NCBI GenBank assembly: GCA_018695085.1
Contig: JABHOU010000189.1
Span: forward strand, 1-37,851
Source: Opitutia bacterium
GTDB taxonomy: Bacteria; Verrucomicrobiota; Verrucomicrobiia; Opitutales; Seribacteraceae
Direction of reading: 5' to 3'
DNA length: 37,851 nucleotides
Below, piece after piece: positions 3,575 to 37,851 of the stretch (positions are counted from its first letter, which is position 1; the number at the start of each line of letters is the position of its first letter). Under the pieces are notes generated by a model that saw only the letters and a program-made list of their open reading frames with translations, made no database searches and was not told where the DNA came from. The position numbers were made by a program, and so were the translations under genes.

Positions 3575-3578
3575 GGAA

Positions 3579-4734: not shown

Positions 4735-7700
4735 TCATCTTTTTTCGTACTCCTTTAGATCGTAATCGTAAAATAAACGACCAGGCTTCGCGGGGTCTGA
4801 ACCTAGACGATATGCAGTCCACTTCCCGGAACTAGAATCAAAAAGCGGTAGCAGAGATCCATTGGCTGTTAACTTTTCATTATTCCATATCGATTCCGAC
4901 GACCACATCCAACCAATGCCGGAAATATAAAACCATGCCTCTTTTGAGGTGGGTGCCTGAACGTAAACCCAGCCCAATCCATTCGCACTATCATCGCCGC
5001 CTGTGTGATAGATCCAAGGAAAGGTTCGATCACTGTAAAAACCAAGCCAAGGCAAGTATTTCCAATCCTTGGCAGTTTGATGCTCTTCGGCGTCTTTTGA
5101 AATCGACATGTTTGCAAATCGAGACCTGTATCGATGATCCTTCATCATGGCTTGTATCTGGGAAGCCATAGGCATGCTGGAGTATTTATTGATTTCCGCT
5201 TGATCCAAGGACACTAAATTGTCCTGCCAAAGTGCCAGCATGGCTGCGGCCGTTTGAAACTCATGTTGTTTTTTCGGAGCTTCCCAGAGCAAATCCAAGC
5301 CATCTACCTGCTCTTCCAAGACCATGTGAGTGGTAAATAGTACGGCTCCATCGCCATTCTTATAATTCGGTGTGGCTGGGGCTGGTTGATTATTGCCTCC
5401 TCCGCCAAACATTCCTCCGCCTCCTCCAAACATCCCGCCGCCAAAACCTCCGCCGAACATATTGTTGTTGTTGTTGTTGTTGTTATTACCTCTTCCTCCT
5501 CCGCCAAAACCGCCCCCCATCATGCTATACATCATCATCTGCTGAATCATCTGCTGCTGCTGATTATTTTGCTGTGCCTGTTGAGGGTCGAGGCTCTTTA
5601 TTCTGTAAGATCCTTGCACTTGCTGTTGAAGCGTTGGCTCGAGACCGTGCTTGTTTCCAAATAAAAGCGTAACGAAACTGCGGCGATTAAACTCGTTTTC
5701 ATCACCATTGAAAGGTCCTATCGCTCCATGAGTACGAAGAAAGGGAAGCGAGGAAAACGTCATATCCAGATAGGAACCCAATCGAAACGCGTTGTCGGGG
5801 AAATCGGTCGCATTTGTGTCGCTTGTTTTCCAAAGGACTTCCTGGTTCGTTGAATAGCCATCGCCGTCCGTATCCCCACTACCATCCGTTCCGTAGTTTG
5901 GAATTGCAGAATAGGTTTGGAGGGCATCGTCCATCAAGTTTTTCGAAGGCCAATAACCCATGGTGATATAGTAACCCGCTACGGCACTCACAAGATCCTG
6001 AAAAGATTGTCTTTGAGAGATGTTTGACACCCAATTCAAAAAAGCGGTGTCGTTAAAAATATATTCCCCATGAGTCCCACCACCAATATAATCTAAGGAT
6101 AATTCCACCTCTTGCTCGGAAGGTTCGTAAAAAAGCAAATCTTTGTAAAACTGACTTACGGCGGATTTCATCTCACCCAAGGGGTTCCGTTTGGTCAGAG
6201 TAATCGTTATCGGGGAGGAAACTATAGAAGGCGTATAGGTCATGCCACCGATGGTTTCATTTTGCATGACTACCGCACCGAAAAGATCTACCTTGTCATC
6301 GCTACCTGCGACCTCTTGTTTGGTGCTCCACTCAAACGTAAAGCGACCCGAACCAAAGGAGGTTTCGTTAGCTAAACCAATTTCCGCACCATTCGCGAAA
6401 AGGGCCATCTGGCGTGCTTGTTGAGCAGCGTTGGGATTGTTACCGGCAGTGGCGTCAGGACCAATCACGCGGGGAAGGTTTACGCCTTTAACTTCCACCG
6501 TAATGTTCATGACTTGACCAACCGTATATTCAGTTTCCGGAAGAGGGCTTATCATGGTGGCCTCGGGTAATTGAACAGAACCCGCCACGGTCCCCCGGTC
6601 GGTCAAGGATATACGATTGTCGCTGTTGTCCACAGCGACTGCCGTCAATTCCCAAAAGCGATCTGTTTCGAAAAGGGAAGTACTGGAATCGGGTGAAAAA
6701 ATACAATAAAAGGGTGCTTTGTCATCAACATGATAAAACTGGCCGTTAAGGTAGAACTCTACCCGATTTACACCATCGTCTAAATCCACGATTGCAGGAA
6801 CGAAAACCAGCCGAGAACCTCTCGTGGTAGCACCCTGTCGAGTCAATGATGGATAATGACTATATGCACCATCGGGCAGCTCTCCTATTTGGGGCAATAC
6901 TTCGATTCGCTTCTCCGCTAATTTTTCAATTCCGTTTTGGTCAGTGGCGATCGCCCGAATGGAATAACTTCCTGCATCCGCCGGAATGAATCCCGAACTA
7001 AACGGCCAAGTCGTGTCTGTCGAAACCAGAATCCCTCCTACATAGAACCTAACGCTTGCCACATTGGGCGTATTAGCCGTTTGGTCAGCAGCAAGAAAAA
7101 TCCAAGAGCCTGCTCGGTAAACTTCAACAACCTGAACCTCCAGCCATTGCTGAAGTAGATTAAAATCATTCAAGTATGGTGCCAACGGCTCTCCTTTGTC
7201 ATTGGTTAATTTTTCTTCGATCTCCAAGGTATCCGTGCTCAAAATTTTGGTCACTTTGAAAGTATTTTCGGTTGTGACATATTGCCCGGTTGCAGAATCG
7301 ACTCGACCGAACCTGATAATTTGACCAGGTACGAGGTCGGTCATAAAGGAGGTGCTCAAGCCACTGATATTTGTATTACCAACCACGGAAGCCCCAAATC
7401 CCGATCGGCGGACATTTCCGTTTGTGCTGCTAATGGTCAACGCTCCCAGTTGGGCATTCCCGGAAAGCGGACGGTTCAATGAGGTAAAGGCCAAAATCTC
7501 ACTTGTTTCCGAAACGACTGTAACTTTACTGGGAGCGGAAAAAAATAGGTTCCCTTCTTCGTCACGGGCATAGGCTAAGATTTCATAAATTCCTGGCTGG
7601 GTAGGAGTCCATGTAGTGTAGTAGGGGGGAAGAGTATCGGGAGCACCACCTGTATCAACGGACACTCCATTAACAAGAAAACCGACCCATTGTACCCCAA

Positions 7701-10700
7701 AGCTTAAGCCAATATTGGGATTTGGGTCTAAAATCATGGCCTCCAGAAAGAGAGAGTCATTTATGAGATAAGGAGTTTCGTTAAGGCCTCTTAGTGAAAT
7801 TTTAGGAGCATCCCCACTGCCGGTAGTTGAGGTAACGGTAATGGCGTTACTCATAACGCCATTGCCGCTATTGTCTCGAATCTCAGCGTGAAGAGTATGC
7901 ATTTCAGAGCGACTTACATTCCATTCAGTCGAAAACGTGCGCTTAATAGTATCCGTAACTGAGCTAACATTATGCTCAGAAAGAAGGTGGCCGTTAATGT
8001 AGAAGTCCAAGCTTTGAACCGAGCCATCGGGATCACTTCCGGTGGCATAGATGCGAGCCATCGAGGTGGAAGTCAAAGCCAGCCCGGCATTGGGGAAAAC
8101 AAACTCCACCTCCGGAGGTAAAGATCCTCCCATTTCCACAATTTTAATGCTAATCGGCCATGAAAAGCTTTCTTGATTTGTGTTATCAATGGCTCGAGCG
8201 GTGATTTCATGGACCCCGGGTATGGTCGGAGTCCATGTAAAAGAATAGCGAGAAGTTGTTCCGTCTCTAGTAACGACACCACCGCCGCCGCCACCGCCGC
8301 CGCCAAACTGCCCAATTTGAGTGGCGCCGGAATAAATAAAGAGTTGGCTTATTTCGCCGTCAGGATCTGATGCATTGAAAACGAAATGAACAGGTATGCC
8401 CGCAGTGTAAGTGGGCAAGTGAGTTTCTTCGTCTTGGCTTTCTTTAGTGCGCGGAACCATCATCTCGACTGTCGGTACTTTTCCTCTTTCGACGTTTATG
8501 GACAAAGTCTTGGTGCGAGCACTTAAACCATCGATCGAATTACCGTGTACGCGAATATCGAACAACCCCAAGGATGGAGGATCCCAAAGTAAAGAATAGT
8601 GAGGGTATGCGCCGCCGACTTGCAACGCGGTATCCTCGGTTCCATTCACAAATACTTGAAAACCATTGTTATTGATCAGTGTATCAGGATCATTCGCTTG
8701 AATGCCTATGAACACAGCTTCTCCCAAATTGGCTGTCATGGGTTTTATTGCTGTATTTAGACCTCCTTTAAAAACAAACTTGGCAGCGGGCGAAAATTTA
8801 CCGCCGCCCGTAAGCATAACTTTGTTTATCTGTCCCGAAGAATTATTGTCTTCGTCTTTTGGCGAAATAGTGACCGTACCGATAGGGGAAGTCACATCCC
8901 CATCTACAATGTAAAGCTCCGGAGCGGAATGATATCCTTTGCCTCGGAAAAGTATGTTGGATGCGTTAACCTCGCCATGGGCAAGGATATTGTTTTCATC
9001 AAGAAGCCCTGTAAGTGAAAGATCGGCAAAGTTCAAGGGTTCGAACTCAAACGACGGCGGTATCGATTCGAAGACCTCTCGCTTGATTACCGAGGAAACT
9101 TTTTTGTTGCCATGGTTGTCCCTTGCCACGGCATACAGTTCGTATACGCCTGCAGATCCCGGACTCCAAATCGCCTCATAGGGCTCATAAGCATCCTGTC
9201 CGCCCGGAATGGGAACTCCATTTTCATAAAAAGTAACGACGGAAACATAGCCATCCGCATCACTCGCTTCAGCCGTCAATGGAATTTCATTAAAATTAAA
9301 TCCTCCTCGAAAAGTTACCGGCGTCCCGGGAGTATACCCATTCCCTTGATTCGTTATTGTAACAGCGGTAACTGATTCATTGGCAATCGTGGCCGTAGCC
9401 GTCATCCCCGTACCGCCTCCCTGAATTTCAACTTGAGGAGCTGACTTGTAACCGGAACCGCCGTCAAGAACTTGCACACGAAAAGTAACACCATCTAGTC
9501 GTAATCTCAATACTGCTTCTGCGGATTCACCGGAGGGCTTGAGTACAGGAAATCCACCTGAAACATTTATCGTTATGTTAGAATCATTGGGATCCTTGAT
9601 TCCATGATTTTTCATGTTTAAAGATTCAATGGTGCCGAAATTTGGTTTAGTCGAATCGGTTTGCACCATCGCCGATACATCTGCTCCATTGGCACCGGTA
9701 ATCGCAATCTCAGGAGAAGAGGCATAACCAACGCCACCATGCTTAATTACAGGAACAATAGTATTATTATGATCTCCGCCCCAAGTTGCGGTAATTTCTG
9801 CATTACGTACGGGATATGCAAGTGCCACATCGGGCAAGCTTCCACTACCACTGGTACTGCTCAAAGTGCTAAAGTTGGACATAACGGAATTGCCACTGTT
9901 GTCCATTCCCACAGCAACAACGGAATGAACACCATGACCTGATCCAGCAGTCCATAAGGTACTGTAAGGGAAATTTTTCTGACCTTTACCAGCAGCTGCC
10001 GTAATGGGTTCACCATAAGGTACGCCATTTACATAAAATCGGACCCATTCCAATTTGCCGTCCGGGTCACTGGCTGATGCGTAAAATCGCATTTCAGATC
10101 CTCCGGTAATAGCCTCTCCATTTGTCGGAGAAGTCAAACTAACAGAAGGAATCTGAGATGGAGAACCCGGAATAATAATGACATGATGACCAGCGGAGTG
10201 AAAAGCGGATTTCATTCCATCATCAATCGCTTCTGCACTGATCTCGTATACGCCGGGAGCATCTGGTATCCATTCCAATATAAAATGATCAGTTCCGGGA
10301 ATTTTTCGGGCGCTGTTAATGACTGTAGCATCCAGAGTCGCATCAATAACAGCACCACCACCAGGCGTTATTGTAACGGTGGGGGGCGTGGTATATCCAG
10401 TTCCTGGGTTAGTTAACGTTACACCATTTATGACACCATTTGCATTTACCGTTACGGTTCCGGCGGCACCTGAGCCACCCCCTCCCGCAAAACCTAGTTG
10501 AGGCGGAGCTTGTGGGTCAAAACCAGCTCCGGGATTAACGATTGTCAATCCCCCAAGGTTCCCGTTCGTAGAGGCTCCCAGAATTGATCCGTTTCCATAA
10601 AACCTGACTTCCGTAACCTGCCCATCGACATCCTTCCCCTCAGCTTCGAGAATGACTCGCGACCCCAAAACGAATTGAAAAGGGTAGTCAGATGATAGGT

Positions 10701-13700
10701 GCCTTCCCTCAGAAAAAATAACTCGAGGAACCTCTTGATATCCACTGCCATTTTGATCCAACGTAACAGAGATTCCACCGATTCTTAAATGCTCTGCCTT
10801 GATTTGAGCACTGAAGTTTCCGTCCCCACTTGCAGGGTCGGCGCTAATTGTGGACGCATTGTAGTCCGATCCCGCAGAAACCACCTCCACAGAAGCGATC
10901 ACCCCATTTTTAACGGTCGCCCCTGCTTCATTCGCATCAAAACCGTTGCCTGTTTTACTGTCTACAACCACCCGAAGATAATTAGGCACATAACTGTTTC
11001 CACCTGAAAAAATCTGAATTTCAGTAACGGTTCCATTTTCGTCTACTCCTAGACCAGCCAAGGCTCCAGTCCCCTTAGTATTGGTGTTTTGAAGGTCAAA
11101 TATTTTGACTATGTCATCCTTGGTGTAGCCCATTCCCCCAGTCAGTACCGGTATGGAGGTCAATACTCCGTTTACGATATGAGGCTTCATCTCCAAACCG
11201 CTTCCATTTGAGTCATCCACGCTAAGTTTAACCTCATCCGTGTAGCCAGAACCACCATTGAGAACGGTTACTACTGAAACAGCGTTAGGATTAAGGACAC
11301 TGGCAGTCGCTTGCGCCCCTATTCCACCACCACCGGCAATAATAACATTCGGTTCCTCAATGTAATCGGAACCCATATCATCCATTACGATTCTTGCAAC
11401 TTGGCCAAAATGTGGATCATTCGGGTCGTTCGTCGAGTGCAAAACCGCATGAGCGCGAGCAATTTTTTTAGTGTGCTCGCCTGGTTGCAGGAGAGTAACT
11501 GTAGGGGGGGAATTTGGCGTGGCTTGTGATTCGATATGTTCGGGCCTCACCTCAAAAGTTATAGGATCGGAAATAACATAATGATCACCAAAATCACCAA
11601 CATTTCCAACGGCCATGGCATGAAACTGGTAAACTCCAGCCTCGGGAGGCATCCAAGTTGTTTCGAACTCTTCCATCTCGCTGTTGAGAATAGGGGTTCC
11701 ATTGGTCACGCGCTCCAAGGTCACGCCATTGGCAAAAAACTGCACGCGGGAAACCCCGTTGCCGAAACCAAAAAAGCCACCGCCACCATTACCCTTAGCA
11801 AGAGCCCGCAACCTCATACCCTGCGCCGATATAGAAACCGTATCTAGAGACACTTCGGGCCTAGGGGAAGTATTGTTTGCGTTCGTTCCCGCCAAGCTTT
11901 CTGTTCGGACAACGTTCCCGTCATTGTCCATAACCTCGACCTTAAAAATAAAGTCCTCGGCAAGAGTTACTTTCCAGCGAAAAGCATATACGTCGCCAAA
12001 ACGATATTCTGGCTCGCCCAATAAAGTATCATTATAGAAGAAACGAATATATTCCAAGTGCCCATCGGGGTCGTAAGCTCTAACATTCACAAAAAGTTCG
12101 GAGCCAACGCTGTAATCCGGAAAAGTATCTCCTCCCACGCCACCGGGAACCGGCTCCTCTAAAATCGCGATCGGCAGAAGACCCGTAGATTCATTTGTTA
12201 TCTCAATAATTGACGTGCTTAAATTAGTTTCAAGAGAAGTTTCTCCTAAGCTATTGGTGGCAGTCGCACTAACATGGTAGGTGCCCGGACGGTCGGGCGT
12301 CCACTTAAACAGAAACCTTCCCTCTCGACTAAAAACACCTGGGGCAGGAAAGGTTTGCGTGGCAATGCCTTCTTGATTGTTAACGAAAACATTTATACTT
12401 TCAACTGTTCCCTGAGTAGTTTCGGCAATGAAGCTTATTTCTACCTCGTTCCCTAGCAAAAACTTATTTCTGCTCTGATCGACTGGGTCAGGGTCAGAGA
12501 GAATAACCGTCACTTCAGAGGTCGTCTTTAACGCCTCAGTCTTTCGGTCATGCACGTAGATATCTCGAAATCCGTTTGTATCCGCGGGGTTTTGGTTGGT
12601 TGCTCCAAATAAAAGTCCACCTGCGCCTTGAACATCCGAGCTGTAAGAAATGAAACGGCCATTACCGGTTATCGAGGGAAACCGGTTGGAGGGCATAGTC
12701 GTCGTCGCGTTCGTTCTGTAATTTACCGGCAAACCAAATTTACTGGTGGTGATTCTTTCGTTTAAACTCTTTGAGTGGTCATACAGGTAGATATCGTCAG
12801 TAACTTGATCTTTGTTGACCAAGAGAGCAGGTCGCCCATTGGACATCATGCCCGAACTTATGTTTGTGTTGATTTCAGAAAATCCGAATATCACGGGATC
12901 AGGAGCAATGATAGGGGTGGCTCGGGTAAAACCCGTTCCGCCGACAAGCATGTTGCTCTGCATTGTCGCGGTAAGAGACGATGGGTTTCCAGAGGTCGCT
13001 CTTCCTCGAAGGGCGCTAACAACCAAAAAGTCCGCGCCAAGGGTTTTCTCGGATACCTGAAGACCCTCATATAGGGGGGAATTGGTATCGGTTGGCCAAA
13101 GACCTTCGAGCGCTTGCGCAACCGCATCGCGCACACCAACAACCGACAGTCCAGAAATGCCGATCGAATTGCCCACGACATTAGCCGAAAATGCATCAAA
13201 AGTTAAAGTTTCCGTTTTCAAGTGGTCAGAAACTGTCAAGGTAGCACCATGCAGACCCACCGTACTCTGAACCACAAGCCTTATGCGTTGCTCCAGAAAA
13301 ACTTCCCCATTGGGACCCAAATGGATGCGGTCGGGGTTTACCTTTGCATCGGGTTTTCCATCATTGTCCAAATCCGCACCATCTCCATCAATAATTATGC
13401 CTGCACCCTGATTGAGAACTTGTTCTTTAGTGTAACCGAGACCTTCGTCGTCCATTTCCAAACGAAGAATGGTCCCGCCTCCAGATCGATTGTTTCCAAT
13501 ACCACTGGTGACCGGGTGGCTGATAGACTTTAATTGAAAGCCCGTTCCAGCCCTAGGGTTATCAATGGATATCATTGTTTGCGAATAGTCGTAGTTGTTA
13601 CCCGAATTAAAAATGGATATGTCGGCAATGCGTCCGTAATTATCAACGTGATATAGGGCAAGCGCCCCAGATCCGCTACCGGAAAGATCCTCGATTCGAA

Positions 13701-16308: not shown

Positions 16309-16341
16309 TAAGGTTGATTTAAAAATACATTAGAAACGCCC

Positions 16342-16369: not shown

Positions 16370-16454
16370 TTAGCGTTTAGCGCTTTGTTTTTCAGCAGAT
16401 TGCTTATTATTAGGCGCGTGAAAAGGGAGTTGCTTGGAAAAAATTTAGTGGGGT

Positions 16455-28400: not shown

Positions 28401-29627
28401 GGAATAGCCGGCAAAAGTGGAGCCGTCGAGCCAAGTCCAGTTTCCTTCGGTGGCATTCAAATCGAAATATTCGGTGGAGTTCGTATCTTTGTTGAAAGAA
28501 CTCCCTTTCGAGATATTTCCAGTAGTATTGATGTGATCGGTCCCCCCTATCCAGGCATATGGCACGGTTCCGTTGTACTCGGGAAACAAACCCATGACAT
28601 TGGCATCTTCCAAAAGTTTGCGGACATCCTCGTTTTCATGAGCGGAACCGATGCAAACCAACCGTCCACCACTGTTCTCCGCATTAGCCTTGGCCGTCTC
28701 CCAATCAGCAGGAGCGATGACCACCTTGTACTTGAGGTCAATGATCGTACTCGAGCCCGAACTGCCGGCGATGACCGGATAACGCACACGATTGCGGCCG
28801 GCTCGGCGCTCGGCTTCGCGAACTCGGCGCTCAAAGGCAAAAACACCTTCTTCACGAGGAAATTCATAGATTGCATCGGCGATTTCCACTGCGACCGAAC
28901 CTTCGATTTCACGGCCTCGAAGTTCGGTTTCTCCTAAACGGCGGACGGGATTCTCGTCCACCGCTACAATATCGCCGACAGCAATGCCCCGAATGGCGAG
29001 ACCCTTCATCGTGGGAAGTTTGTAGCGCTTGCCGTAAAGGGATGCCTTCAGGCGACGACCATCAGGAAGAATGACAGTGTGCCTTATGAAGCCGCCCAAG
29101 TGACTTGGGTCCAGACAGAAATGAACAGCTTCTACATCCGCATATGTATTAACCCAACTGCCCAAAAAGGGAAGAATGGCCTCTGGAAGACCATGCCTAT
29201 CGACCTGAGGAACAGCCAAGGACAAGGCGGCCTCGGGATCGGTACGGATCAAGTGAGCAAGAACCTCTTGGCGCTCTTTCGCCAATACAATCCCCCTCGC
29301 GACTTCGGCCCTACCCGCCTTGCGAGCAGCAACCCATTCACCAAAACGCTTGAAGGCCGGATCAGCTTTTGTCGCGATAATTCGAGATGGAGAACACCAT
29401 TCGAGATATTCAGTAGGACGATCATCGGATAAAGTCACTTTCCCGGGAACCAGCAAAGTCTTGGTCGAGAGATTACGGTCGTCCTGTTTTTTGGTGATGT
29501 TAATATTTTCGGGCAGGCGCGAGAGCAAAAAGAAAACCGTTCCGATAATACCAGCGACCGAAAGCATCCACACTGCACCGCGGAACAATAATTTGACTTT
29601 GGCAGTCCTTTTGCGGGTGGAAGACAT
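16455..29627 (-). CDS. Giant N-terminally membrane-anchored multidomain protein (4390 aa): C-type lectin, metzincin zinc protease, PKD-like, 2x LamG, CBM5/12-like, GxGY repeats, TSP3-like, DUF5011-like Ig, Ala-rich helical region, cadherin-like, Trp-rich C-terminal module
   Basis: An uninterrupted 13.2-kb ORF with a true ATG at 29627-29625 and TGA at 16457-16455. A basic N-terminus (MSSTRKRTAKVK) is followed by one hydrophobic helix. The individual domain motifs are listed as separate features. Confidence 0.92.
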   Translation of the reverse strand: MSSTRKRTAKVKLLFRGAVWMLSVAGIIGTVFFLLSRLPENINITKKQDDRNLSTKTLLVPGKVTLSDDRPTEYLEWCSPSRIIATKADPAFKRFGEWVAARKAGRAEVARGIVLAKERQEVLAHLIRTDPEAALSLAVPQVDRHGLPEAILPFLGSWVNTYADVEAVHFCLDPSHLGGFIRHTVILPDGRRLKASLYGKRYKLPTMKGLAIRGIAVGDIVAVDENPVRRLGETELRGREIEGSVAVEIADAIYEFPREEGVFAFERRVREAERRAGRNRVRYPVIAGSSGSSTIIDLKYKVVIAPADWETAKANAENSGGRLVCIGSAHENEDVRKLLEDANVMGLFPEYNGTVPYAWIGGTDHINTTGNISKGSSFNKDTNSTEYFDLNATEGNWTWLDGSTFAGYSNWAVGENDNATNPVLAEAEDFAVMDWNAGGVWRDLNHTFHLPYVIEMDLGDQPDASDVPISDNRKVLVIRARYQDEGVEYAGSSKPVVDEDGNIINPDKQQDAFEPVTGLQVRQVMEKVREFYQRNSDYKLNLDYVITGTVTMPTRKWSKHTMFGDDEIVEACEVDIDLPKTIAAQVSPEDWDFDGPAFKGVTGIEVSASGGGYLYPPLVRIEGGGGSGAKAEAFLDSNGSIASVLVTDTGRDYTAVPTVTVEGEHENKNDDPNATLTAKVGRTAVSWISITTCGSGGLGKVGAPGSHVTASSWEAGVAAHELGHNFGFQHANRYESVGEKAISDEGGVIDYGNPYSVMGTGGIGADLTVAAKIVAQFGYEEGNASGADATFLASGADIAASIWREPNATRQNVFRVYRHDYGSAPYPLRLGSYTVAVPANIDLPKDFPSGSITVSIGGPGTEVTATATGSKRSYELTITSPGIGFSEEPRIELLDDQNKSLLLDSAWIQVFAGQTPVKAELRDRSPSSAKGLRAIRLHASSKAPYWSYLVSYRQSATKNGLNLINADGADNVLLDLTRNTPDDFTDGSLMLGQTYSDYDSDVHITPISRGGNSPMEYLEVALNVGTVADGNASAPLFSLQTSNLRPEVNQGVEFTVILSGDANLSRYAFSWYHDERPLIGDAYLNQPTIIKTFDSVGNHNLRAVVSDMKGGVSSQTVVLAVGEPEQAGISRIEGVVESTTGPVQGARVVLQKAPIIQHVVTVSGDLLSSRIPAGLADTTKFFIDGQRSPRLEFRRGEIHRFEYEPSAKGYPITFYSAPDSEPAKVELRLIFSPRVEDPGSGYEQNPEVVLDGGIFDSYESNLTRSYVEYLEDNGSIFTPYRIVYKPYAKSLLAPTGVKKIRTRKVSGARGGNGHHPDFPPLVTINRQSLWEDYAEANATAKAYVDGVGTIIVLEAGAGYPDSPSIAVVGRGVEASASTKKMGVTNEKGQTEPDKLKEVSLADQGESYDLNTTLAIALYPPNPFAYWSFDREESLFRQNYYPRKDKLMLEPSPGWLRPITQSLKAHWSMDEENSTSSSDHHIGATPVLGQTTDYNATMELNASVFIADRSEWGIRGRAIRLQGNSTVEEYLAPDSPNKNKFLGDSFTVSLWVKPDGNGSFHGLASQKESGTNAFSLYWNTSDFVGILYKAEENSGSADNVVLSGGDLNASEWTHVAYAFDEDSATATMYVMGELVASKTFTLAGNFNKISGRASDFILGKAFTETPTTEYLNGFIDEVSVFDRALEPREIRQLSGDLFLDLSGQNRHGVAMDMPMNDPDELDAGVVPGNPNDGIDFNGTRYVDLSQAAQDFAPLSTGSVSFWFKTLSLANGTPVDGTILAASDKDDPDSFFRLMVRDTGQIQFLVSNGGAEITRVYTTETFNDDDWHHGLLVVNEVSSLFYVDGKAVDLRTAADGQNAPRGFFADVENIDYMAIGRHQTSEANQTNYFIGQLDEVWVFDRVLEAPEISFLYDLRPSAKDVFRASLEARVDSVGTVKVTAPGAGYKETPKVTFSPGDTPPGSNEPEPWDACATYVEGDLVRYRKTEIADYSTYSAIRENNNTKPEALNLMKNNSLHIYPAAVWQRYEHSEGQTANGVLALQPTGVESVLLTKDMGKALDIQLPDGKEIKRRYVEYVDDNGSAYIAGGGFVWAHPFASSQYSSPPWPGPVQGVFGFRAPPTIVIGGSKTDDNATGSHLFYLDPEESVLITDPGHGYSDPGFSEGDVRIRGKGSIPPRFESIMREQAIHGFILRRPGNGPYDLDVERNSTLDAIFDTLTENGFAGLSEEEKNLCMLEGTQYQNEDGTIILRHFPEITTKDNGDVVYYPASDNRFWGTEDVFYDANDGQLKLRNPERWLRFIGDDPVEEKPPVVEVFLSDKLDVARGVAPRKYEVKAMRINPERKDYGSGWVKPPTIYFDLNATKARQVNAKSVSFTNVLSRIQILDGGLGYSVPAEVNFHGGYTTPSNYRDLNHTRARINPDKVDENGTLSADAIELLDPGSGYSRPPFVSITGGGGIGARARAFLENNGSGMVAAILVTDGGRGYFNLDANNTPKVVLVNAGQKPTKEANVTMRLGGSLDEIPIQSSSMIHNVPLVKITDNAGTGTGATAFAKVVDGRVVKVIVEKAGNSYLDPRVEISATYNVDKEFQAKCSPIFRNGQIVEIIVDNPGAGYACPEVFVMGTGSGVDVIPVFNNNGKMVRLVYDDPALKNEELGPVTLPAGAGQGFGERPWALNEVARVVVVDEYRERLSPLGGSIYLGLPIPRDSAGDQISEFTIHDHGIGYGADAPSIRIDFNSSHAKSFRDACATTFLTKGLSKMVLDGNGTYKANGMWRSVFGEIPVVEVHRANLEGEDAYKLTSVGRNGGIDYNPLSHRRFMDVVVDDSFPSFSSYSLSDWDREGLGGEIHTLDSAPSLDWRVVTKWEPGKYHKGDVVWWGADAYEALATFVSGNLSKEYDPENEVDQFWRKLNGQSGAMSALGVITSFSFEDADLSISRISKERGSVSFEDAIRVHETEILGENIYSWAYLPDAWISYTDSNGYYSFPNLEPGLYNAAVLAEDSNLEEITFREDGNSTVTHVVYVPGIPSLRLETDQNGVGLSSLIWPEDVLRQGESTSTKKNLKGIGVGFRPGTIPVFSITPHPQNTGRGIPNLSTTVNPDGSLDIQIVDVNSSNHNSADSFTVFYGSTISGLDFREDYLFDRLDDAYWMGRKAAVDANASHLIISPSAGDNSVEMPISSSVAGDLNMTFTAKGYDRNGTLLDTDNVKWELEFDFNSTEGNLTKLASLSTIDGNSTTLILRSTLRSGKVASVRVDGGGTGYSDDNSTLVQIFGDGSGAFARISEVNSTGSVKAIEVVEGGSGYSVISGIRLSRPEGQTGTDANLTALVGGGLWLKATLGLLEQKVRLEASHRAQLTEKELWSDLHFDTVREGFIDWDDDNDTDGLNNSLEFSYRTNPWKADTDGDGLGDGSETTLRTDPNNADTDADGLLDGVETNTNTYVDANNTGTNPKNPDTDGDGWPDGLEVSFGLDPLNPEKGGAGISGTVYFQGEMNGTLYVLAIPEEEGVPVFEENKDVSSYLGGDKPLTPSSATFYFFKNLPTGKTYNIHAFIDRGESGDPSNKAYDYGEPVGNYSGSWDRSLSEDRSQVNFVVKDPPPLLTLLPMAESVIGGDGKEKAVYLNPGDEVFHLKPLASDDYDGVIDPKTVSEDGNATGIITIDDLNATQGSGTLKVSALAPPGVYHLIYTAADSAGSTGTVTRTIVIRDSKAPEISLFAGDLVTYEAGTEWEDPGYSAIDVVDGNLTHKVGVELATLAPPLGWGSSDVGTVLQLYNLNYIVQDIAGNQAIATRKVEIVDTIAPDLLLFGSPSMNLNKGEPFVEPGFSALDTVDGDLFNRVMVSGSLDENVTGTYELNYSVVDDSGNEIATKRTIYVADWNYTIAGKAMDGYLVGASVVFDIDGNGTHDLSSPVLTDESGAFSFSFTEEEFLKADANKNGAIDPEEGRILVYGGTDSSTLEPFTGLYVADANSTVVNPLSTLSSAFVEQGLSREDAKSKVAEALGLSASLDLFNYDPIAAAAEGDANASQALAASARVANAIRQGAAFVKYASDGNASGKSISAQLISEVAAKIASGAASPLGDASEMQNVLTSVVTTLGVAGVTAEDLAGAAQMSVAADGMIVESLAKGTAPDTLAVELAKIQAVVEDSIVQGYEKLRLEGGTPATLATAKSKELLSGQTSDYNGSVNIFPPTASNAEIALPADQWIQGVTILNLHGADADGDTVGFSISSGNPDTDKDGVAAFSLSEQGQLLVADEDEADHLSVGEAMVVALRLADGNGLYGTATVTVKRGNALGLSAAEVDGAQNWRQSEWFGDFFTNGSSWVFHESLGWLYVVSDRTGGFWFWDVELEVWWWSNPTFFPHFYLVRQTGSGWGYWDPKAVHPRYFDFDENSWKEKTK
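16458..16736 (-). other. Trp-rich C-terminal module of the 4390-aa protein (93 aa)
   Basis: Sequence NWRQSEWFGDFFTNGSSWVFHESLGWLYVVSDRTGGFWFWDVELEVWWWSNPTFFPHFYLVRQTGSGWGYWDPKAVHPRYFDFDENSWKEKTK. It has 15 Trp in 93 aa. It aligns by eye with 4738-5067. Confidence 0.7.
16785..17091 (-). other. Cadherin-like / VCBS-like beta domain
   Basis: Sequence IALPADQWIQGVTILNLHGADADGDTVGFSISSGNPDTDKDGVAAFSLSEQGQLLVADEDEADHLSVGEAMVVALRLADGNGLYGTATVTV. The pattern (A.D.DGD.l.fsi..g........F.i...G.l.v) is typical of bacterial cadherin-like domains. Confidence 0.5.
18030..18530 (-). repeat. Two tandem DUF5011-like (HYR-like) Ig domains
   Basis: First copy: APEISLFAGDLVTYEAGTEWEDPGYSAIDVVDGNLTHKV...YIVQDIAGNQAIATRKVEIVD. 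Second copy: APDLLLFGSPSMNLNKGEPFVEPGFSALDTVDGDLFNRVMVSG...YSVVDDSGNEIATKRTIYV. The consensus P.i.l.G......G..y.dpG..A.D..DG.l...v is conserved. A third, weaker copy lies upstream at about 18540-18800. Confidence 0.7.
19210..19521 (-). repeat. Thrombospondin type-3-like calcium-binding repeats
   Basis: Sequence DWDDDNDTDGLNNSLE...ADTDGDGLGDGSE...NADTDADGLLDGVE...NPDTDGDGWPDGLE...GLDPLNP, containing four to five DxDxDGxxDxxE loops. Confidence 0.75.
23895..25105 (-). other. Two tandem LamG / concanavalin-A-like lectin domains
   Basis: Domain 1: FTVSLWVKPDG...EWTHVAYAFD....MYVMGELV....FILGK......LNGFIDEVSVFDRALEPREIRQL. Domain 2: GSVSFWFKT...DDDWHHGLLVV....LFYVDGKAV......MAIGR......FIGQLDEVWVFDRVLEAPEISFL. 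These are classic Laminin_G_3-type motifs. Confidence 0.75.
26265..26530 (-). other. PKD-like Ig domain followed by a carboxypeptidase-regulatory-like segment
   Basis: Sequence LFSLQTSNLRPEVNQGVEFTVILSGDANLSRYAFSWYHDERPL...HNLRAVVSDMKGGVSSQTVVLAVG, then ISRIEGVVESTTGPVQGARVVLQ. Confidence 0.5.
27438..27470 (-). other. Metzincin zinc-binding motif HELGHNFGFQH (HExxHxxGxxH)
   Basis: The coding strand reads cac gag ctt ggg cat aat ttt ggg ttt cag cat (aa 720-730). A candidate Met-turn YSVMG lies about 30 aa downstream. The upstream segment KVLVIRARY...FYQRNSDYKLNLDYVITGTVTMP resembles the N-terminal half of gametolysin (M11)/reprolysin-like catalytic domains. Family assignment is not certain. 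Confidence 0.75.
28266..28736 (-). other. C-type lectin-like domain
   Basis: Sequence YKVVIAPADWETAKANAENSGGRLVCIGSAHENEDVRKLL...PYAWIGGTD...GNWTWLDGSTFAGYSNWAVGE...EDFAVMDW..GVWRDLN. This is the canonical pattern W..A...C...g..La.i.s..E..f......WIGl.d......W.W.DGs...y.nW. Boundaries are approximate. Confidence 0.7.
29520..29597 (-). other. Single N-terminal transmembrane segment (signal anchor or uncleaved signal peptide)
   Basis: aa 11-36, VKLLFRGAVWMLSVAGIIGTVFFLLS, preceded by the basic stretch STRKRTAK. No obvious A-x-A cleavage site follows. Confidence 0.6.
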
Positions 29628-33620: not shown

Positions 33621-34934
33621 TCATTTGTCGTCAAGTGGCAGAGAAAGCCATTCTCGCTGAAGTTCGGGGGGATCGATTGCTTGCTTTTCAAAATGAACTC
33701 GAGATTTAGCAATGTCTATTTCCAAAATTTTGTAATCCCTAAGGGCGAGCCGAAAGCTATCTCCTGTCGCATTTTGTTCAAAAGTGAACTTTTCTGCGGG
33801 AACATCCTTTGAGGCGGACTCCACTACAATACGATACTGTCCAGCGTGAGTTTCGTTCATAAAACTGTTAATTTCAAATGGTTTCACGAGCAACCGAAAA
33901 TCTTTGACCATTGCCCTTCCAACTGGGCGAATTCCGCCTGTTTTGGGATCTCGTACCTGTTGAACGGCAAACGCATTCACGATAATCATTTTGTCGGGGT
34001 CTTCAGTATTGGTTTGTAGCAAGGAGGGCGTACCTGGTTTGTAATTGCGGTTTTCCTTGTATGGGACTCCAACCTGCAGACGGTTGCGAACATATCGACC
34101 CGACCCCGCGGGAAACTCATAAAGTAGATCTTCAAGATATGGGGTTTCTCCAATCCAACTACGAATTCGAAACCTGTAGGAAACTTTCTCGAATGCGACA
34201 AGGCGCAGGCCAAACTCCTCTGGTGGTTTTTCTGGTTTCGCCTCTTCGGGCAAACTGGTTTCGAGACGACCGTTTACAACATAAAGGACAGGGGGCGTAA
34301 AAAGGTCGTAGTTAGGTTCTCCCTCCTTTGGGGAAGAAGCCTCAATCCATTTGCCACCACTTGCTGACTCGCTTTTTTCGGCAACATCTCCTCTTTTTTG
34401 GTAAGTCGCTATAACAAAGTCGCCACCAGACTCCCCTTCATTGTCATTTTCCGAAGCGATGGTTAGCATTGTAGAACCCCAAAGCTGTTCCAATTCCGCG
34501 ATCCGAACATCTTGATCCCCCTCCTTCGTTCTTACAGACAGTAAGCCCGTTGCAAAACGCCATTCACGATTTAATTCTTTTGCCCCTGACTGCTTGATTT
34601 TTCCTGAAATGGTTTTTCCACTGGAAAGCAGAAGCGCGACATCGGTATAGTCTTCTGGAAAAAGGATGGTTTCTACAGTAAAGTTCCCGTTAAAAAAATC
34701 AGGTTCGGCTCCATCTATAATTACGAGCTCTCCAGGCATCAAGCCATGTGGGGTTTTCGTTTCCAGAGTAATTGTTTTCGATTCTTGCGAAAGGGTTGCC
34801 CCGTTCTGCCCCAAAAATGATTTCGATTCACGACGATTATCTCTCAGCAGGGAAAGCAAGGCAAAGATCACAAGGCATAGTAATGATATGCCCACCGCAA
34901 GCTTTTCGTAGTTTGCTCCCAGAAATTTTTTCAC
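33621..34934 (-). CDS. Bitopic membrane protein of unknown function in the PilP/PilO position of the cluster
   Basis: 437 aa, GTG start at 34934-34932, 5 nt after the stop of the upstream gene. It has one N-terminal TM helix (LAVGISLLCLVIFALLSLL) and a beta-rich periplasmic part. I recognise no family motif. The YDLFTPP segment faintly recalls the DPFxP motif of PilP-type proteins. Confidence 0.75.
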   Translation of the reverse strand: MKKFLGANYEKLAVGISLLCLVIFALLSLLRDNRRESKSFLGQNGATLSQESKTITLETKTPHGLMPGELVIIDGAEPDFFNGNFTVETILFPEDYTDVALLLSSGKTISGKIKQSGAKELNREWRFATGLLSVRTKEGDQDVRIAELEQLWGSTMLTIASENDNEGESGGDFVIATYQKRGDVAEKSESASGGKWIEASSPKEGEPNYDLFTPPVLYVVNGRLETSLPEEAKPEKPPEEFGLRLVAFEKVSYRFRIRSWIGETPYLEDLLYEFPAGSGRYVRNRLQVGVPYKENRNYKPGTPSLLQTNTEDPDKMIIVNAFAVQQVRDPKTGGIRPVGRAMVKDFRLLVKPFEINSFMNETHAGQYRIVVESASKDVPAEKFTFEQNATGDSFRLALRDYKILEIDIAKSRVHFEKQAIDPPELQREWLSLPLDDK

Positions 34935-34939
34935 GAGGA

Positions 34940-36175
34940 TTATTTGCTGCCGAAAGCTTGTTTAAGAAAATATTTTGAATCTCGGTCTGACCCCAATACT
35001 GTTAACAAATCCGAAATGGAGGATGAAGGGGGTGGACTCCATGGATAATGACGCCGAAGGAAGGCCTTTAGCTTCTCGTCGGTTTCCGCTCCCTCCTCGA
35101 TGTCATCTATGCCCAAAGTGCATTCTGCAAGTAGATTATTAGAGCATAGAGGCTTTATTAAATCCAAGTCTGCATGAACTGACAAAACATATTCTACTAA
35201 AATGGTGAACCGGGAGCCCACATCCTTGATAATCGGCAGAGTTTTTGAATTTACCGCAATATTGTTGGAGTTGGGAGCAAAGGGGCTATTGGTACTTGAG
35301 TTGTTGTTTGCCGTAAAACTGGAAGAGCTATTTTCCAATCGCCTTACTGAGATATCGCGAACAAGAAAAGGATATTGAAGGCTGTTTAAAAAAGTGCGGA
35401 GAGCACTTGTCCGTGCCAGAAAATTTATTTCAAAGGCATAAGTCTCTATAGTGCCTTCCCGCTTGGCAAGAACATTGGCTATCGAATCCACGCTCAAGGC
35501 TTCGTCGGCAATACGCTGACGGTCGACATCTCCGACGGGCTCACGGCGAATGCCCAGCAACTCCATGGGCTCGCCATTCTGTTTGGCTTTAAAAAGAGTT
35601 AGCAAAAGCTTTTCAGAAATTAGCTTTTGCCTAAGAAGTTCCCGAGCTTCATTGTCAGAAATACTTGGCCAAGAACCATCGTATCCTGCGAACCCGAAGC
35701 CCTCTCGATCCTCTCCTGAAGAAATTTCTTCACTCGGGAACAATCCTCCGAATTCGCTTGTGCCCGTTTTCGGTGCCCCTTTAATTTTTACGCTATATTC
35801 GCCTGCTGCCTTACGGTAGAGATCCAGAAAACGAGAAATTTCCGCATTCACATCATCGGATGCCTTCTTTTCGACACCTGCAAAGACATCATCTCTTCCC
35901 AAAATCTCCCTCCATTTCTTGAGTTCACGAGCTCGTTCAGCCAAAAGGTTTTTATTGTCCCCTCGAGCCAAGTTCAGGTTGGCCTCGATCCATCCAAACC
36001 CCGCTCCGTCATCAATTTCTTTAGCCAAATTTCGGTCGAGTGCCTCTATGTCTCCCAAAACCTCATTCAAATCACTAGAATGGTTGCATGACAACAATAA
36101 CAAAGATGCAAAAATTCCTCCTGCTAAAATAGCAAAGGATATAAAGTAAAGGTTTACCCTTAGGAAAGTTTTCAT
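34940..36175 (-). CDS. Putative lipoprotein, Amuc_1100-like (PilO/PilN-fold family linked to verrucomicrobial type IV pilus-like clusters)
   Basis: The track start at 36178 is a TTG and an ATG follows immediately at 36175. The signal peptide has a lipobox, FASLLLLSC (Cys codon 36088-36086). Two segments resemble my recollection of Akkermansia Amuc_1100. First, GFGFAGYDGSWPSISDNEARELLRQKL here versus WLGFQVYSTQAPSVQAASTLGFELKAI. Second, ETYAFEINFLARTSALRTFLNSLQYPFLVRDISVRRLEN here versus PLEIAFQGDRESVLKAMNAITGMQDYLFTVNSIRIRNER. The comparison is from memory and was not searched. Confidence 0.55.
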   Translation of the reverse strand: MKTFLRVNLYFISFAILAGGIFASLLLLSCNHSSDLNEVLGDIEALDRNLAKEIDDGAGFGWIEANLNLARGDNKNLLAERARELKKWREILGRDDVFAGVEKKASDDVNAEISRFLDLYRKAAGEYSVKIKGAPKTGTSEFGGLFPSEEISSGEDREGFGFAGYDGSWPSISDNEARELLRQKLISEKLLLTLFKAKQNGEPMELLGIRREPVGDVDRQRIADEALSVDSIANVLAKREGTIETYAFEINFLARTSALRTFLNSLQYPFLVRDISVRRLENSSSSFTANNNSSTNSPFAPNSNNIAVNSKTLPIIKDVGSRFTILVEYVLSVHADLDLIKPLCSNNLLAECTLGIDDIEEGAETDEKLKAFLRRHYPWSPPPSSSISDLLTVLGSDRDSKYFLKQAFGSK

Positions 36176-36203
36176 CAAGACATGAGAAGCGGAAAGTTTG
36201 ACA

Positions 36204-37851
36204 CTATAAGGAACGTTCCCCTTTCAATTCGATTTCGTAGTGAAAATAAGTATAGAAACGGTTGAAGAGGTCTCCTCTTCCTTCGGTTTCGAATTGCTTT
36301 TTTAAAATCTTTTCAGCGAAATCGCACCGCTCAAGGCTTTCCGTAAGAGCCTTTTGGTGGGCACTGTTGAGCTGAATTAAGTTTTCTCGGCGCGATTCGG
36401 TTTCCAAATCGCGGACAAGAAAGCGACCGTTAAGGACAAGCACGCGATTCGGTTTTAAGTTTTGGTTGTCAATCGCTCGCTGACGACCGGGCTTTTTGGT
36501 GCCTCGTGCTTCTCGTTGGACATAAAGTTCGTCAAGCCAAACCTCGCGGGCTTCATTAATTATCAATGCCTGCAAATCAGCCAACAACAGACGCCAATTG
36601 TCAGCCCCAGAGCTTACGGCTTGCAGCGACGAAAGTTCTTTGTCTATCGCTCTCGCAAAATGGTCAAGGGCAACCAAGCCCTCTTGCTTTTCTACCTGTT
36701 CTGAAACTTCCAGTTGTTTTTGGCGTAACTGTCCTTTTTTTTCGGCAAGCGTTTGTTTGGCTTGAGAAAACTCTGCCATCGTCCCAATAACAGACGGAAG
36801 CGGAACAAGCGAAAGAATAACTGCTGCTGCAGCCAACCACCAACGCTTTTTGCGGATGGTCATATTGGCCAGCTTGTCTTTGGGTAGCAAATTTATGCCA
36901 CGATAGGATGATGTCTCTCCCACCGCAAAAACTCGACAAGCCTCTCCTACTACTTCGCTCAAAATAAATGGCAATTGTGGTAGTATTTCAGGGTCTATCT
37001 TAGGTCCTATTTTAACGGCACGCAAAGGATCAAAATAGTCTACCGCCAAAGCCTGTTTTTGACTTAAATATTCAGGAAGACCCGGCAGCAAGGAACCCTT
37101 TCCGCAGAGAAAAACTCTGGTCGGTGACTTGCCTTTCTTTAGGCGTTTGTAAGTAACAACGGAGCGAGTTACCTCTTGGCTCAAGCGAGCTTTGAATTGT
37201 TCGGCATTTTTCTCGAGAACCTGCACGGCGGGATCATCGGAAGAGAAAGCTACCTCGCCGGAAAAAAAAGATCGCTTTACTTGTTCCGCCTTTGCAAAAG
37301 GCACCCCTATGCTATCGGCGACATGCTGGGTTAGTGAGTTGCCACCAAGAGCAATATTGCGTATGAGAAAGCCCTCTGGATTTATGAAAAGAAGATTTGT
37401 GGACTTGGCCCCAATGTTAATTACAAGTGTCTCCTCGCCCCTCATTTCCAGCAGAGAAAGCCTTAGTGCATTGTAGTCGAGTATGGAGGCTGCGCTCAAT
37501 TCGACGGGATTGAGACCCAACGCATCGACTTTTTCGCAAAAGGATTCCGCGATCGCAGGGCGAACGGCTATGGCAAGAACCTCCTGCTCCACCCCATCAT
37601 CCTCAACGACCTGATAGTCCCAAATTAATTCGGCCAAAGGATATGGCATCTTTTGCTGCAACTCGAAGGCAACTATTTGTCGCTGTTTGCTCTCCTCTAC
37701 ACGAGGTGCTCGAATCGTTTTCGTAAGCAAAAGACTGCCTGGCAAAATGAAATGGGCCTCTCCCTTGCCAATTCCGTGGCCAACGAGTTTTTCAAGGCCA
37801 TCGGCAAGTGCGTCAAGCCATAGACTTTCGTTGGAGTAGTCGTATTGCAGA
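36204..37851 (-). CDS. pilM: Type IV pilus assembly protein PilM fused to a PilN-like module; 5' end lies outside the window
   Basis: The reading frame stays open upstream of the track start (a TTG at 37745) to the window edge (...LQYDYSNESLWLDALADGLEKLVGHGIGKGEAHFILPGS...). The PilM actin-like/FtsA-like part includes QRQIVAFELQQKMPYPLAELIWDYQV, LVINIGAKSTNLLF, ALGGNSLTQHVA and VFLCGKGSLLPGL. It is followed by the PilN signature GINLLPKDK, a TM helix WWLAAAAVILSLVPLPSVIG (about 36790-36860), a coiled coil and an alpha/beta C-terminal domain. Confidence 0.85.
   Translation of the reverse strand, partial: LQYDYSNESLWLDALADGLEKLVGHGIGKGEAHFILPGSLLLTKTIRAPRVEESKQRQIVAFELQQKMPYPLAELIWDYQVVEDDGVEQEVLAIAVRPAIAESFCEKVDALGLNPVELSAASILDYNALRLSLLEMRGEETLVINIGAKSTNLLFINPEGFLIRNIALGGNSLTQHVADSIGVPFAKAEQVKRSFFSGEVAFSSDDPAVQVLEKNAEQFKARLSQEVTRSVVTYKRLKKGKSPTRVFLCGKGSLLPGLPEYLSQKQALAVDYFDPLRAVKIGPKIDPEILPQLPFILSEVVGEACRVFAVGETSSYRGINLLPKDKLANMTIRKKRWWLAAAAVILSLVPLPSVIGTMAEFSQAKQTLAEKKGQLRQKQLEVSEQVEKQEGLVALDHFARAIDKELSSLQAVSSGADNWRLLLADLQALIINEAREVWLDELYVQREARGTKKPGRQRAIDNQNLKPNRVLVLNGRFLVRDLETESRRENLIQLNSAHQKALTESLERCDFAEKILKKQFETEGRGDLFNRFYTYFHYEIELKGERSL

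Follow-up and report, generated by a model that had tools for sequence, protein, structure and literature searches.

A distant homolog of the Amuc_1098/MUL2 secretin module in Opitutales adjoins a recurrent slot for exchangeable giant exoproteins

What does a secretin machine handle when the genes directly behind it encode two proteins of about 4000 residues? The question is posed by a stretch of DNA from a marine Opitutia bacterium (Verrucomicrobiota, Opitutales, Seribacteraceae), hereafter the window, meaning all 37,851 nucleotides (nt) that were analyzed (assembly GCA_018695085.1, contig JABHOU010000189.1, positions 1 to 37,851). On its minus strand, the list of open reading frames (ORFs) gives, in order, a gene for a PilM-like protein with a transmembrane (TM) helix (pilM-TM), orfB, orfC, the secretin gene, giant 1, giant 2, two GT4 glycosyltransferase genes (GT4a and GT4b), and a thioredoxin-like gene, with intergenic gaps along the string of approximately 25, 5, 167, 76, 146, 22, and 4 nt, the last being 4 if GT4b starts at the GTG at position 3574 (Table 1). 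A preliminary description, made from the sequence alone, had presented the region as a co-directional string in which the secretin complex could be a conduit or anchoring hub for the giants. The ORF list and the domain scans (PilM_2, Secretin, GT4) bear out that string in the order given, and the earlier gap values agree with the recomputed ones to within a few bases. Its extent has to be amended: the thioredoxin-like gene lengthens it, pilM-TM is cut by the window edge, and the range once assigned to it, starting at 4735, omits the GT4 genes (2450-4712) that it was described as containing. No opposite-strand gene breaks the string, as the largest plus-strand ORF within it (27633-28937, 434 amino acids (aa)) has no family match and is most likely spurious.

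The synteny is not confined to its source genome. Eighty-three Opitutales loci were read and scored by tblastn and ORF analysis (the secretin matches number at least 512, 80 of which were read), comprising a close clade, whose secretins of 1161-1251 aa are at least 55% identical to that of the window (55-98%), and distant Opitutales, in which the identity is 35-42%. A co-directional homolog of giant 1 lies directly 3' of the secretin gene in 21 of the 21 close-clade loci that have downstream sequence, and locus L166 (loci are numbered from L001) is a further case. These close-clade homologs all have an N-terminal anchor, nearly all carry a metzincin motif, and LamG domains occur among them. 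The distant loci keep the five-gene module, and a large slot ORF, defined as co-directional, at least 1000 aa long, and next after the secretin, is found in 22 of 54; in 4 further loci the slot ORF is cut by the contig end, and in 3 it measures 500-999 aa. Elsewhere among the downstream genes, ORFs of this size amount to 2 of 184, so that the slot is enriched roughly 40-fold (Fisher p = 2.5e-14, with loci counted individually). The spacing is tight in many lineages: the distant slot ORFs start -10 to 161 nt from the secretin stop codon, many of them at 28 nt or less. Where a large slot ORF is missing from distant loci, a 5'-3' exonuclease gene or opposite-strand genes are found.

The occupants of the slot differ from one lineage to another. 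A local hidden Markov model (HMM) of the N-terminal core of giant 1 detects no homology to giant 1 in the distant slot proteins, and when residues 1-1000 of giant 1 were used in a word-indexed database search, the only two matches were weak and unrelated. The distant slot ORFs themselves form at least four groups, between which no overall homology can be detected. Among them are proteins that combine an anchor helix and a metzincin motif with PPC domains and reach 3097 aa, S8 subtilases (Peptidase_S8) of approximately 1290 aa, and Big_7 arrays of up to 3062 aa, some of which end in the Trp-rich module described below. Within Opitutales, the association of the secretin with a large gene is real and keeps recurring, but not every locus of the order shows it, and it does not extend to the whole family.

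Several single loci deserve mention in their own right. In one distant locus, at L052:12171-20066 (minus strand), a 2631-aa ORF is convergent with the secretin gene, an exception to the rule that large neighbors lie on the same strand. In Thalassobacterium maritimum SDUM461003 (L047), the gene for a 3059-aa protein with a metzincin motif and PPC domains begins 143 nt past the secretin gene, and its cultured congener T. sedimentorum SDUM461004 (L038) has opposite-strand genes in the slot.

The module itself belongs to a known family and is, judged by its best family matches, the profile matches given below, and its gene order, the Opitutales counterpart of the Akkermansia Amuc_1102-1098 cluster (MUL2 plus secretin). 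The PilM-like protein matches Pfam PilM_2 (PF11104) above the gathering score (6.4e-19) and reaches 97 bits against a cutoff of 133 for TIGR01175. Its best NCBIfam match is Amuc_1101_fam (4.5e-72), of which it covers profile positions 43-489 of 608 at 244 bits against a cutoff of 650, the protein being cut by the window; the full-length ortholog of L002 scores 248 bits. Because the frame is open to the window end and the Pfam match starts at profile position 69, the 5' end of the gene must lie beyond 37851. A TM scan predicts a helix at residues 337-359 of the 548 visible, followed by a periplasmic tail of approximately 190 aa, and this succession of actin-fold domain, TM helix, and periplasmic tail is GspL-like in architecture, without a match to the GspL family. 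The former label of a PilM-PilN fusion is thus sound in its first half only, as the PilM_2 domain is present and "PilN" rests on topology; none of the module proteins matches the PilN, PilO, or PilP families in Pfam or NCBIfam.

The product of orfB has an N-terminal hydrophobic helix with a lipobox-like LLSC at its end. On its own, it matches NCBIfam Amuc_1100_fam at 7e-4 (19 bits against a cutoff of 180), and its family profile (A3) matches the Amuc_1100 structures 6KNY and 6LAD at 1.5e-7, which upholds the Amuc_1100-like label given to it previously. OrfC has a TM helix at its N-terminus, and a YDxFTPP motif in it is conserved. It is kept in position across approximately 57 loci and is approximately 130 aa longer in the window than in distant Opitutales, and Pfam, NCBIfam, and the PDB contain no relative of it; no PilP or T2SSC match was found among 17 orfC orthologs, and a single-sequence AlphaFold2 (AF2) model, at a pLDDT of 35, is useless. 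It is an orphan in the right place, as had been noted, and "PilP" can be kept for it as a positional label only. The secretin has a signal peptide, a Pro-rich N-terminal extension, and a C-domain nearer to GspD than to PilQ. Amuc_1098_fam (NF042912) is its best-scoring NCBIfam family (349 bits, E = 5e-104), ahead of GspD (125), MshL (110), and PilQ (92), and yet it fails the cutoff of 750, true members scoring 860-1016 bits; it is likewise below the curated cutoffs for GspD (TIGR02517, 125 vs 351) and PilQ (TIGR02515, 92 vs 284). In a PDB search, the ten best matches are all GspD of type II secretion systems (T2SSs), at 6e-18 to 7e-13, and PilQ matches rank lower.

Upstream of pilM, beyond the window, relatives encode a signal-peptide protein of 200-258 aa whose family profile (A5) has Amuc_1102 (7DSZ) as its top, albeit weak, PDB match (E = 0.0038). 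The five-gene order including this Amuc_1102-like gene is conserved in approximately 57 Opitutales loci, and in relatives at 58-82% secretin identity the Amuc_1102-like ORF is preceded by divergent NUDIX and pyruvate dehydrogenase (PDH) genes. On the strength of these relatives, pilin or ATPase genes just past 37851 are rejected. Exact-sequence look-ups with PilM and orfB of the window gave no match. The look beyond 37851 for pilin, ATPase, or platform genes, made through relatives by gene calls and Pfam, found none upstream of pilM in L002, in L003, or on the P0007 contig, and a prepilin-motif scan of the ORFs upstream of the secretin and within the module in approximately 57 loci flagged none, the downstream ORFs being unscreened. 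The diagnostic value formerly attached to this absence is lost, since classical pilMNOPQ operons are also usually separate from the pilin and ATPase genes, and their absence near the module means little.

The resemblance to Akkermansia muciniphila extends to the whole order of Amuc_1102-like gene (in relatives only), PilM-TM, Amuc_1100, Amuc_1099 position, and secretin, and Akkermansia families are the best matches for three of the four module genes in the window. In contrast, the scores lie far under the equivalog cutoffs (349/750, 244/650, and 19/180 bits), the window secretin is approximately 340 aa longer with its Pro-rich N-terminus, orfC is enlarged, and giant exoproteins stand here and in many Opitutales where Akkermansia has coaE and rho. 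In the literature, where this synteny is described as well, amuc_1099-1102 is designated "MUL2", a mucin utilization locus, and is followed in Akkermansiaceae by genes for a "secretion system channel protein" and dephospho-CoA kinase, and by rho (PMC13174399). The mul genes are reported to be needed for the accumulation of mucin-derived material (PMC12418764), and marine Akkermansiaceae to take up labeled fucoidan (PMC13174399, PMC12418764). In A. muciniphila, no outer-membrane protein is more abundant than Amuc_1098, for which a role in type IV pili has been proposed, not shown (PMC4960237).

With regard to distribution, the secretin homologs at 56-98% identity are all from metagenomes or metagenome-assembled genomes (MAGs), the named ones being Opitutales or Opitutia, and a genome scan for the secretin gave Puniceicoccaceae, Opitutaceae, Coraliomargaritaceae, Pelagisphaera, and Thalassobacterium. 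A MAG labeled Zhongshania aliphaticivorans, a gammaproteobacterium (L081, JBNMPR010000015.1), carries an Opitutales-type secretin 38-39% identical to that of the window and is probably a binning contaminant. Within the order, the clade with giant 1 (L001-L025) stands apart from the remaining loci (L026-L083) in the size of two module proteins: the secretin has a median length of 1173 vs approximately 910 aa, with the Pro-rich N-terminal extension, and orfC one of 426 vs approximately 300 aa, with an extra N-terminal domain. Co-adaptation or shared ancestry could account for both.

Giant 1 begins with a signal-anchor helix at aa 17-36 that looks uncleaved and has no lipobox. It has a reprolysin-like metzincin domain in which the motif HELGHNFGFQH is intact at aa 720-730, an HExxHxxGxxH site that is likewise present in L001, L002, L003, and most close-clade homologs, and farther downstream PKD, two LamG domains (aa 1538-1896), TSP3 repeats (approximately aa 3384-3477), and three Bact_surface_Ig-like domains. 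Before the metzincin domain, aa 376-456 (window 28260-28502) show weak but consistent similarity to C-type lectins (aggrecan at 5.6e-4, CLEC10A, ASGR2, and mincle), the L002 ortholog gives a faint Lectin_C match, and by eye the C-terminus of the stretch resembles the C-type lectin motif WxWxDG; this resemblance suggests glycan binding. Giant 2 combines a cleavable-type signal peptide with CARDB, PD40 repeats, PKD, several Big_7 domains, and Y_Y_Y. Neither giant, whether searched whole or in 500-aa pieces, has a Pfam or NCBIfam match to RTX/type I secretion (T1SS), autotransporter or two-partner (type V, T5SS), type IX (T9SS) C-terminal domain, or PEP-CTERM signatures, and with no such signature the giants are ruled out as substrates of these four routes.

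Both giants end in the Trp-rich module, which had been noticed before and is borne out by alignment and HMM as a common domain of approximately 110 aa with the elements PRY..RF, WFG.F, PW.YH..LGW.Y, W.W, and LGW.WT. It belongs to no Pfam or NCBIfam family, and a database search gave 14 short matches. Its AF2 model is an all-beta hairpin fold of moderate confidence (pLDDT 70), for which Foldseek finds nothing significant in the PDB (best E = 0.32). The module also ends three Big_7 slot proteins (L026, L031, and L032). Another copy lies at L084:10001-10558 amid fragments of DUF285 and cadherin genes, with no secretin within 10 kb.

Comparison with close relatives reveals how the slot changes. 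L001 is 98% identical to the window in the secretin, 92% in orfC, and 88% in PilM, but only approximately 30% in the giant; by blastn, DNA homology of 90% extends over 7.5 kb and stops 8 nt past the secretin stop codon (window 29696; L001:7522-7530). In L166, whose secretin is 92% identical, an additional 156-nt patch of DNA homology (29629-29474; L166:5599-6128) covers the start of giant 1 and its TM anchor, and the body of the protein is 72% identical to that of L001 and 34% to that of the window, L166 being a mosaic in which an N-terminal anchor of the window type precedes a body of the L001 type. At the other end, L085 matches window 7137-1 at 84% DNA identity (L085:7960), a span that takes in the last 800 aa or so of giant 2, GT4a, GT4b, the thioredoxin-like gene, and hisF, whereas the first 3000 aa or so of its colinear giant 2 ortholog are only 28-35% identical to those of the window. 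Because homology to L001, L166, and L085 ends at or inside the giant genes, approximately 7137-29474 of the window can be taken as a replaceable segment: related strains are 84-90% identical to the window in the DNA on either side of it and show no DNA homology within it. Recombination borders fall at the secretin stop, approximately 50 codons into giant 1, and, in giant 2, approximately 800 codons short of its end. In strains whose secretins are at least 92% identical, the giant-1 alleles are only 30-34% or so identical. The third-codon-position GC content (GC3) of giant 1 (0.54) exceeds that of the module (0.41-0.46) and is no evidence of transfer, since it equals that of hisF and the thioredoxin-like gene (0.53). 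Giant 1 is recurrent, and giant 2 with the GT4 genes is found only in the relative L085.

On the left flank (window 1-1791; L085:13335-17112), the order after the thioredoxin-like gene is the same in both, namely hisF, a gene for an unknown protein (326 aa visible in the window, 586 aa in L085), and a gene with an ATP-synt_ab domain, which marks the conserved far border of the variable region.

Table 1. Positions of the genes, motifs, and segments discussed in the text, in window coordinates
Feature	Position	Strand	Basis or remark
PilM-TM fusion, Amuc_1101-type	36204..37851	-	PilM_2 domain; listed ORF 36204-37745, N-terminus cut by window end
orfB, Amuc_1100 homolog	34940..36178	-	Family profile vs Amuc_1100 structures
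orfC, orphan in Amuc_1099/"PilP" position	33621..34934	-	Conserved position
Secretin, 1249 aa	29704..33453	-	Pfam Secretin 1e-36
Giant 1, 4390 aa	16455..29627	-	Domain scans
Giant 1 metzincin zinc-binding motif HExxHxxGxxH	27438..27470	-	Motif
Giant 1 Trp-rich C-terminal module	16458..16760	-	Alignment A2; HMM match 4.9e-35
Giant 2, 3857 aa	4735..16308	-	Domain scans; colinear L085 ortholog
Giant 2 Trp-rich C-terminal module	4738..5136	-	HMM match 8e-42
GT4 glycosyltransferase a	3579..4712	-	Pfam Glycos_transf_1, Glyco_trans_4_4; kept after giant 2 in L085
GT4 glycosyltransferase b, probable GTG start 3574 ("VRITIL" N-terminus)	2450..3574	-	GT4 domains; kept in L085
Thioredoxin-like, signal peptide, last co-directional gene	1828..2367	-	Pfam Thioredoxin_8 7.6e-25; same position in L085
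Hypervariable segment, borders inside both giant genes	7137..29474	.	blastn vs L001, L166, L085

Regarding the remaining genes, the ORF of GT4b as listed runs from 2450 to 3676. The best NCBIfam match of GT4a is HpsP, a hormogonium polysaccharide glycosyltransferase, at 155 bits against a cutoff of 550; in cyanobacteria, the export of this polysaccharide needs a type IV pilus-like system. The match is a lead and not a call of membership. No transporter or glycoside hydrolase genes occur among the window genes by ORF list and Pfam, and neither a tRNA nor an integrase gene can be seen there.

A functional coupling of the module with the slot exoproteins is likely. We tentatively favor a form of it in which the Sec-exported giants cross, or are held at, the outer membrane through a GspD-like secretin machine, a reading that we rate as possible and somewhat short of probable. 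Besides the GspD-like outer-membrane secretin, the machine comprises a PilM/GspL-like protein of the inner membrane and two bitopic partners that face the periplasm. The Opitutales site just 3' of the secretin would serve as an accessory slot for exchangeable exoproteins of very large size that depend on Sec. Here it is filled by giant 1, a putative metzincin protease with a lectin-like stretch, and giant 2, a putative Big_7/propeller adhesin. The giants would reach the periplasm via Sec, pass to the surface through the secretin machine in a type II-like manner, comparable to SslE and T2SS-beta of E. coli, and perhaps be held there; on the surface, they would capture and cut polymeric substrates, and the neighboring GT4 enzymes may glycosylate them. 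Co-transcription of the string, the surface location of the giants, their passage through or anchoring at the secretin, and any role of the GT4 enzymes are what we infer from this arrangement. Counted in its favor are the operon-like spacing, the presence of non-homologous exoproteins in one slot, the lack of any other recognizable export signal, the GspD-like secretin, the GspL-like topology, and the N-terminal Sec-type anchor or signal on the giants. No terminator-like sites were found in the 76-nt and 146-nt junctions; counts of promoters, terminators, and RNA folds were at chance and uninformative for operon structure.

Cargo genes adjacent to a T2SS are familiar, such as those for StcE with Etp on pO157 and PulA with Pul. 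In E. coli, the genes of a dedicated T2SS directly follow sslE and share its regulation, and SslE itself is a large metalloprotease anchored at the cell surface (PMC3707838). The window repeats the juxtaposition of a secretin machine and a large exoprotein with a Sec signal, a putative zinc-metalloprotease or surface-retained protein, and its secretin is most similar to GspD, with an inner-membrane component that is GspL-like in topology. In contrast to a T2SS, GspE, GspF, GspG-K, and GspO are absent from the window and from the flanking genes annotated in L002, in L003, and on the P0007 contig, and the secretin reaches little more than a third of the GspD cutoff; in contrast to SslE, the putative cargo is 2.5-3 times larger, giant 1 has an anchor instead of a lipobox, and the slot is hypervariable.

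A number of observations weigh against export of the giants through the secretin. To our knowledge, no type II substrate exceeds approximately 1500 aa. ATPase, platform, pseudopilin, and prepilin peptidase genes are absent from the window and from the inspected flanks of relatives, and the giants sit in a hypervariable segment typical of surface-protein islands. The close-clade gaps between secretin and giant range from 43 to 530 nt, the upper end of which leaves room for separate promoters, and the upstream NUDIX/PDH synteny is conserved as well as the secretin-giant adjacency in that clade, so that close-clade synteny alone proves nothing and could be a matter of inheritance. About half of the distant Opitutales loci have no large neighbor. 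Likewise, 80 loci of the true Amuc_1098 family, including Akkermansia-like human-gut contigs, were fetched above the curated cutoff; coaE and rho follow the secretin there, and an ORF of at least 1000 aa is found in 1 of the 33 loci with room for it. The idea that giants recurrently adjoin this secretin cluster therefore holds for the close clade and, with unrelated exoproteins, for the 22 distant Opitutales loci, and does not carry over to the Amuc_1098 family proper. Lastly, the sole phenotype reported for the prototype in the papers cited is uptake and accumulation of mucin, not protein export (PMC13174399, PMC12418764).

The Amuc_1098-family loci also vary among themselves. In L151:12684-14702, L116:12593-14548, and L141:12647-14734, one of them an Akkermansia-like gut contig, CoaE and Rho are contained in one ORF of 650-696 aa, and in L087 they are separate (198 and 442 aa); the single ORF could be a real fusion or an artefact of ORF calling.

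The mucin phenotype lends itself to a different explanation, which we consider doubtful yet serious, in which the module is a MUL2-type, pilus-like machine for polymer attachment and uptake, and the giants are substrate-specific surface partners that reach the surface otherwise, capture and pre-digest glycoproteins or polysaccharides, and are encoded beside the transporter as in the polysaccharide utilization loci of Bacteroidota. It fits the homology of the module to MUL2 and Amuc_1098, the requirement for mul genes in the accumulation of mucin material and the fucoidan uptake of marine Akkermansiaceae, as these are reported (PMC13174399, PMC12418764), the union in giant 1 of a metzincin site, two LamG domains, and a weak C-type-lectin-like stretch, and slot contents that vary by lineage, as expected of substrate-specific accessories. 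Akkermansia-type loci without giants pose no problem to it, given that enzymes can be encoded elsewhere. However, it leaves unexplained how two Sec-dependent proteins of approximately 4000 aa without T1SS, T5SS, T9SS, or PEP-CTERM signals cross the outer membrane; import through the secretin itself is only putative for the Amuc_1098/MUL2 family, and the window offers no genes for transporters or glycoside hydrolases by which captured material could be processed further.

The borders of the variable segment invite a third explanation, namely a flexible genomic island 3' of a conserved, highly expressed envelope operon, in which surface-protein and glycosyltransferase genes are swapped by recombination, for example under phage or grazer pressure, and the adjacency to the secretin is positional, with no specific link. 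Giant surface proteins are known from flexible ("metagenomic") genomic islands of marine bacteria, and the window resembles these in its multi-thousand-residue Ig/lectin-repeat proteins beside glycosyltransferases, in their extreme divergence among strains that are nearly identical elsewhere, and in the sharp recombination borders, seen in the break of L001 homology just past the secretin stop, the mosaic giant of L166, and the giant 2 of L085 that is divergent over its N-terminal part and joined to conserved downstream DNA. The GT4 genes adjoining the giants, the range of slot contents, which takes in giants, a 5'-3' exonuclease gene, and genes on the opposite strand, the equal synteny of upstream housekeeping genes, and the occurrence of the Trp-rich module away from any visible secretin (L084) agree with such an island as well. 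Unlike those of marine bacteria, however, it would abut the same conserved secretin operon throughout the order, often at operon-like spacing, with borders inside the giant genes. The roughly 40-fold excess, confined to this very slot, of ORFs that measure 1000 aa or more, the large genes that often start -10 to 28 nt from the secretin stop, the placement of large occupants always on the secretin strand, except in L052, and the lack of a visible tRNA or integrase in the window all speak against it, and we judge it unlikely.

Quite improbable is a more radical relative of the favored export reading, in which the Opitutales machine of the Amuc_1098/MUL2 type is dedicated to membrane-anchored giant fibers, a protein "mega-pilus" without a pilin polymer. 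By analogy, the PilM-N/orfB/orfC platform would handle the N-terminal TM segment of giant 1 like a pilin helix, and a beads-on-a-string chain of 4000 residues would thread through the secretin and stay lodged in it, with an enzymatic (metzincin/lectin) shaft and the Trp-rich domain as its distal end. The point behind it is that L166, one recombinant strain, keeps the TM segment of giant 1 while the body of the protein is swapped.

Least supported and very improbable is a classical type IV pilus alignment/secretin operon, with pilins, PilB/PilT, and PilC elsewhere and the giants as PilY1-like adhesins or unrelated neighbors: the PilM_2 domain, the pilus-protein names under which the Akkermansia families are curated, the pilus role proposed for Amuc_1098, the textbook separation of pilMNOPQ from pilin and ATPase genes, and a gene number and order shared with type IVa PilMNOPQ (PilM domain first, secretin last, bitopic proteins between) would suit it, but the secretin is below the PilQ cutoff and scores lower for PilQ than for GspD, the PilN, PilO, and PilP families are unmatched, PilM is fused to a membrane partner, the prepilin-motif scan flagged nothing in the ORFs that it covered, a giant follows the secretin, the giants have no PilY1-type domains, and known pilus-tip adhesins are encoded with minor pilins, of which there are none here.

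Parts of this picture are already known, as the module is of the Amuc_1098/MUL2 kind, with the window as a distant homolog, and large proteases beside a dedicated type II system are on record. The preliminary claim that no described system shows such a coupling must be narrowed accordingly. In the literature searched, what appears undescribed is the order-wide coupling of the module to exchangeable exoproteins of 1000-4900 aa, the joint enlargement of the secretin (approximately 1170 vs 910 aa) and orfC (approximately 426 vs 300 aa) in the clade with giant 1, and recombination borders inside the giant genes that keep the N-terminal anchor of giant 1. The main text of the ISME J paper on MUL2 synteny makes no mention of Opitutales (PMC13174399).

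Amuc_1098-1102 (MUL2) is among the most studied loci of Akkermansia, encoding Amuc_1100 and being tied to mucin foraging, and its mechanism is still inferred, with a pilus, a secretion system, and an uptake device all under discussion. The recurrent and tight placement of giant proteases and adhesins beside the same module in a sister order offers a testable clue to what the machine handles, and T. maritimum and T. sedimentorum, as a cultured pair differing in the slot, are suited to experiments. If it is true that the giants use the secretin, they would exceed all other substrates of secretin pathways by a wide margin; if they do not, the locus would be a clean example of a hypervariable surface-protein island with recombination borders inside giant genes.

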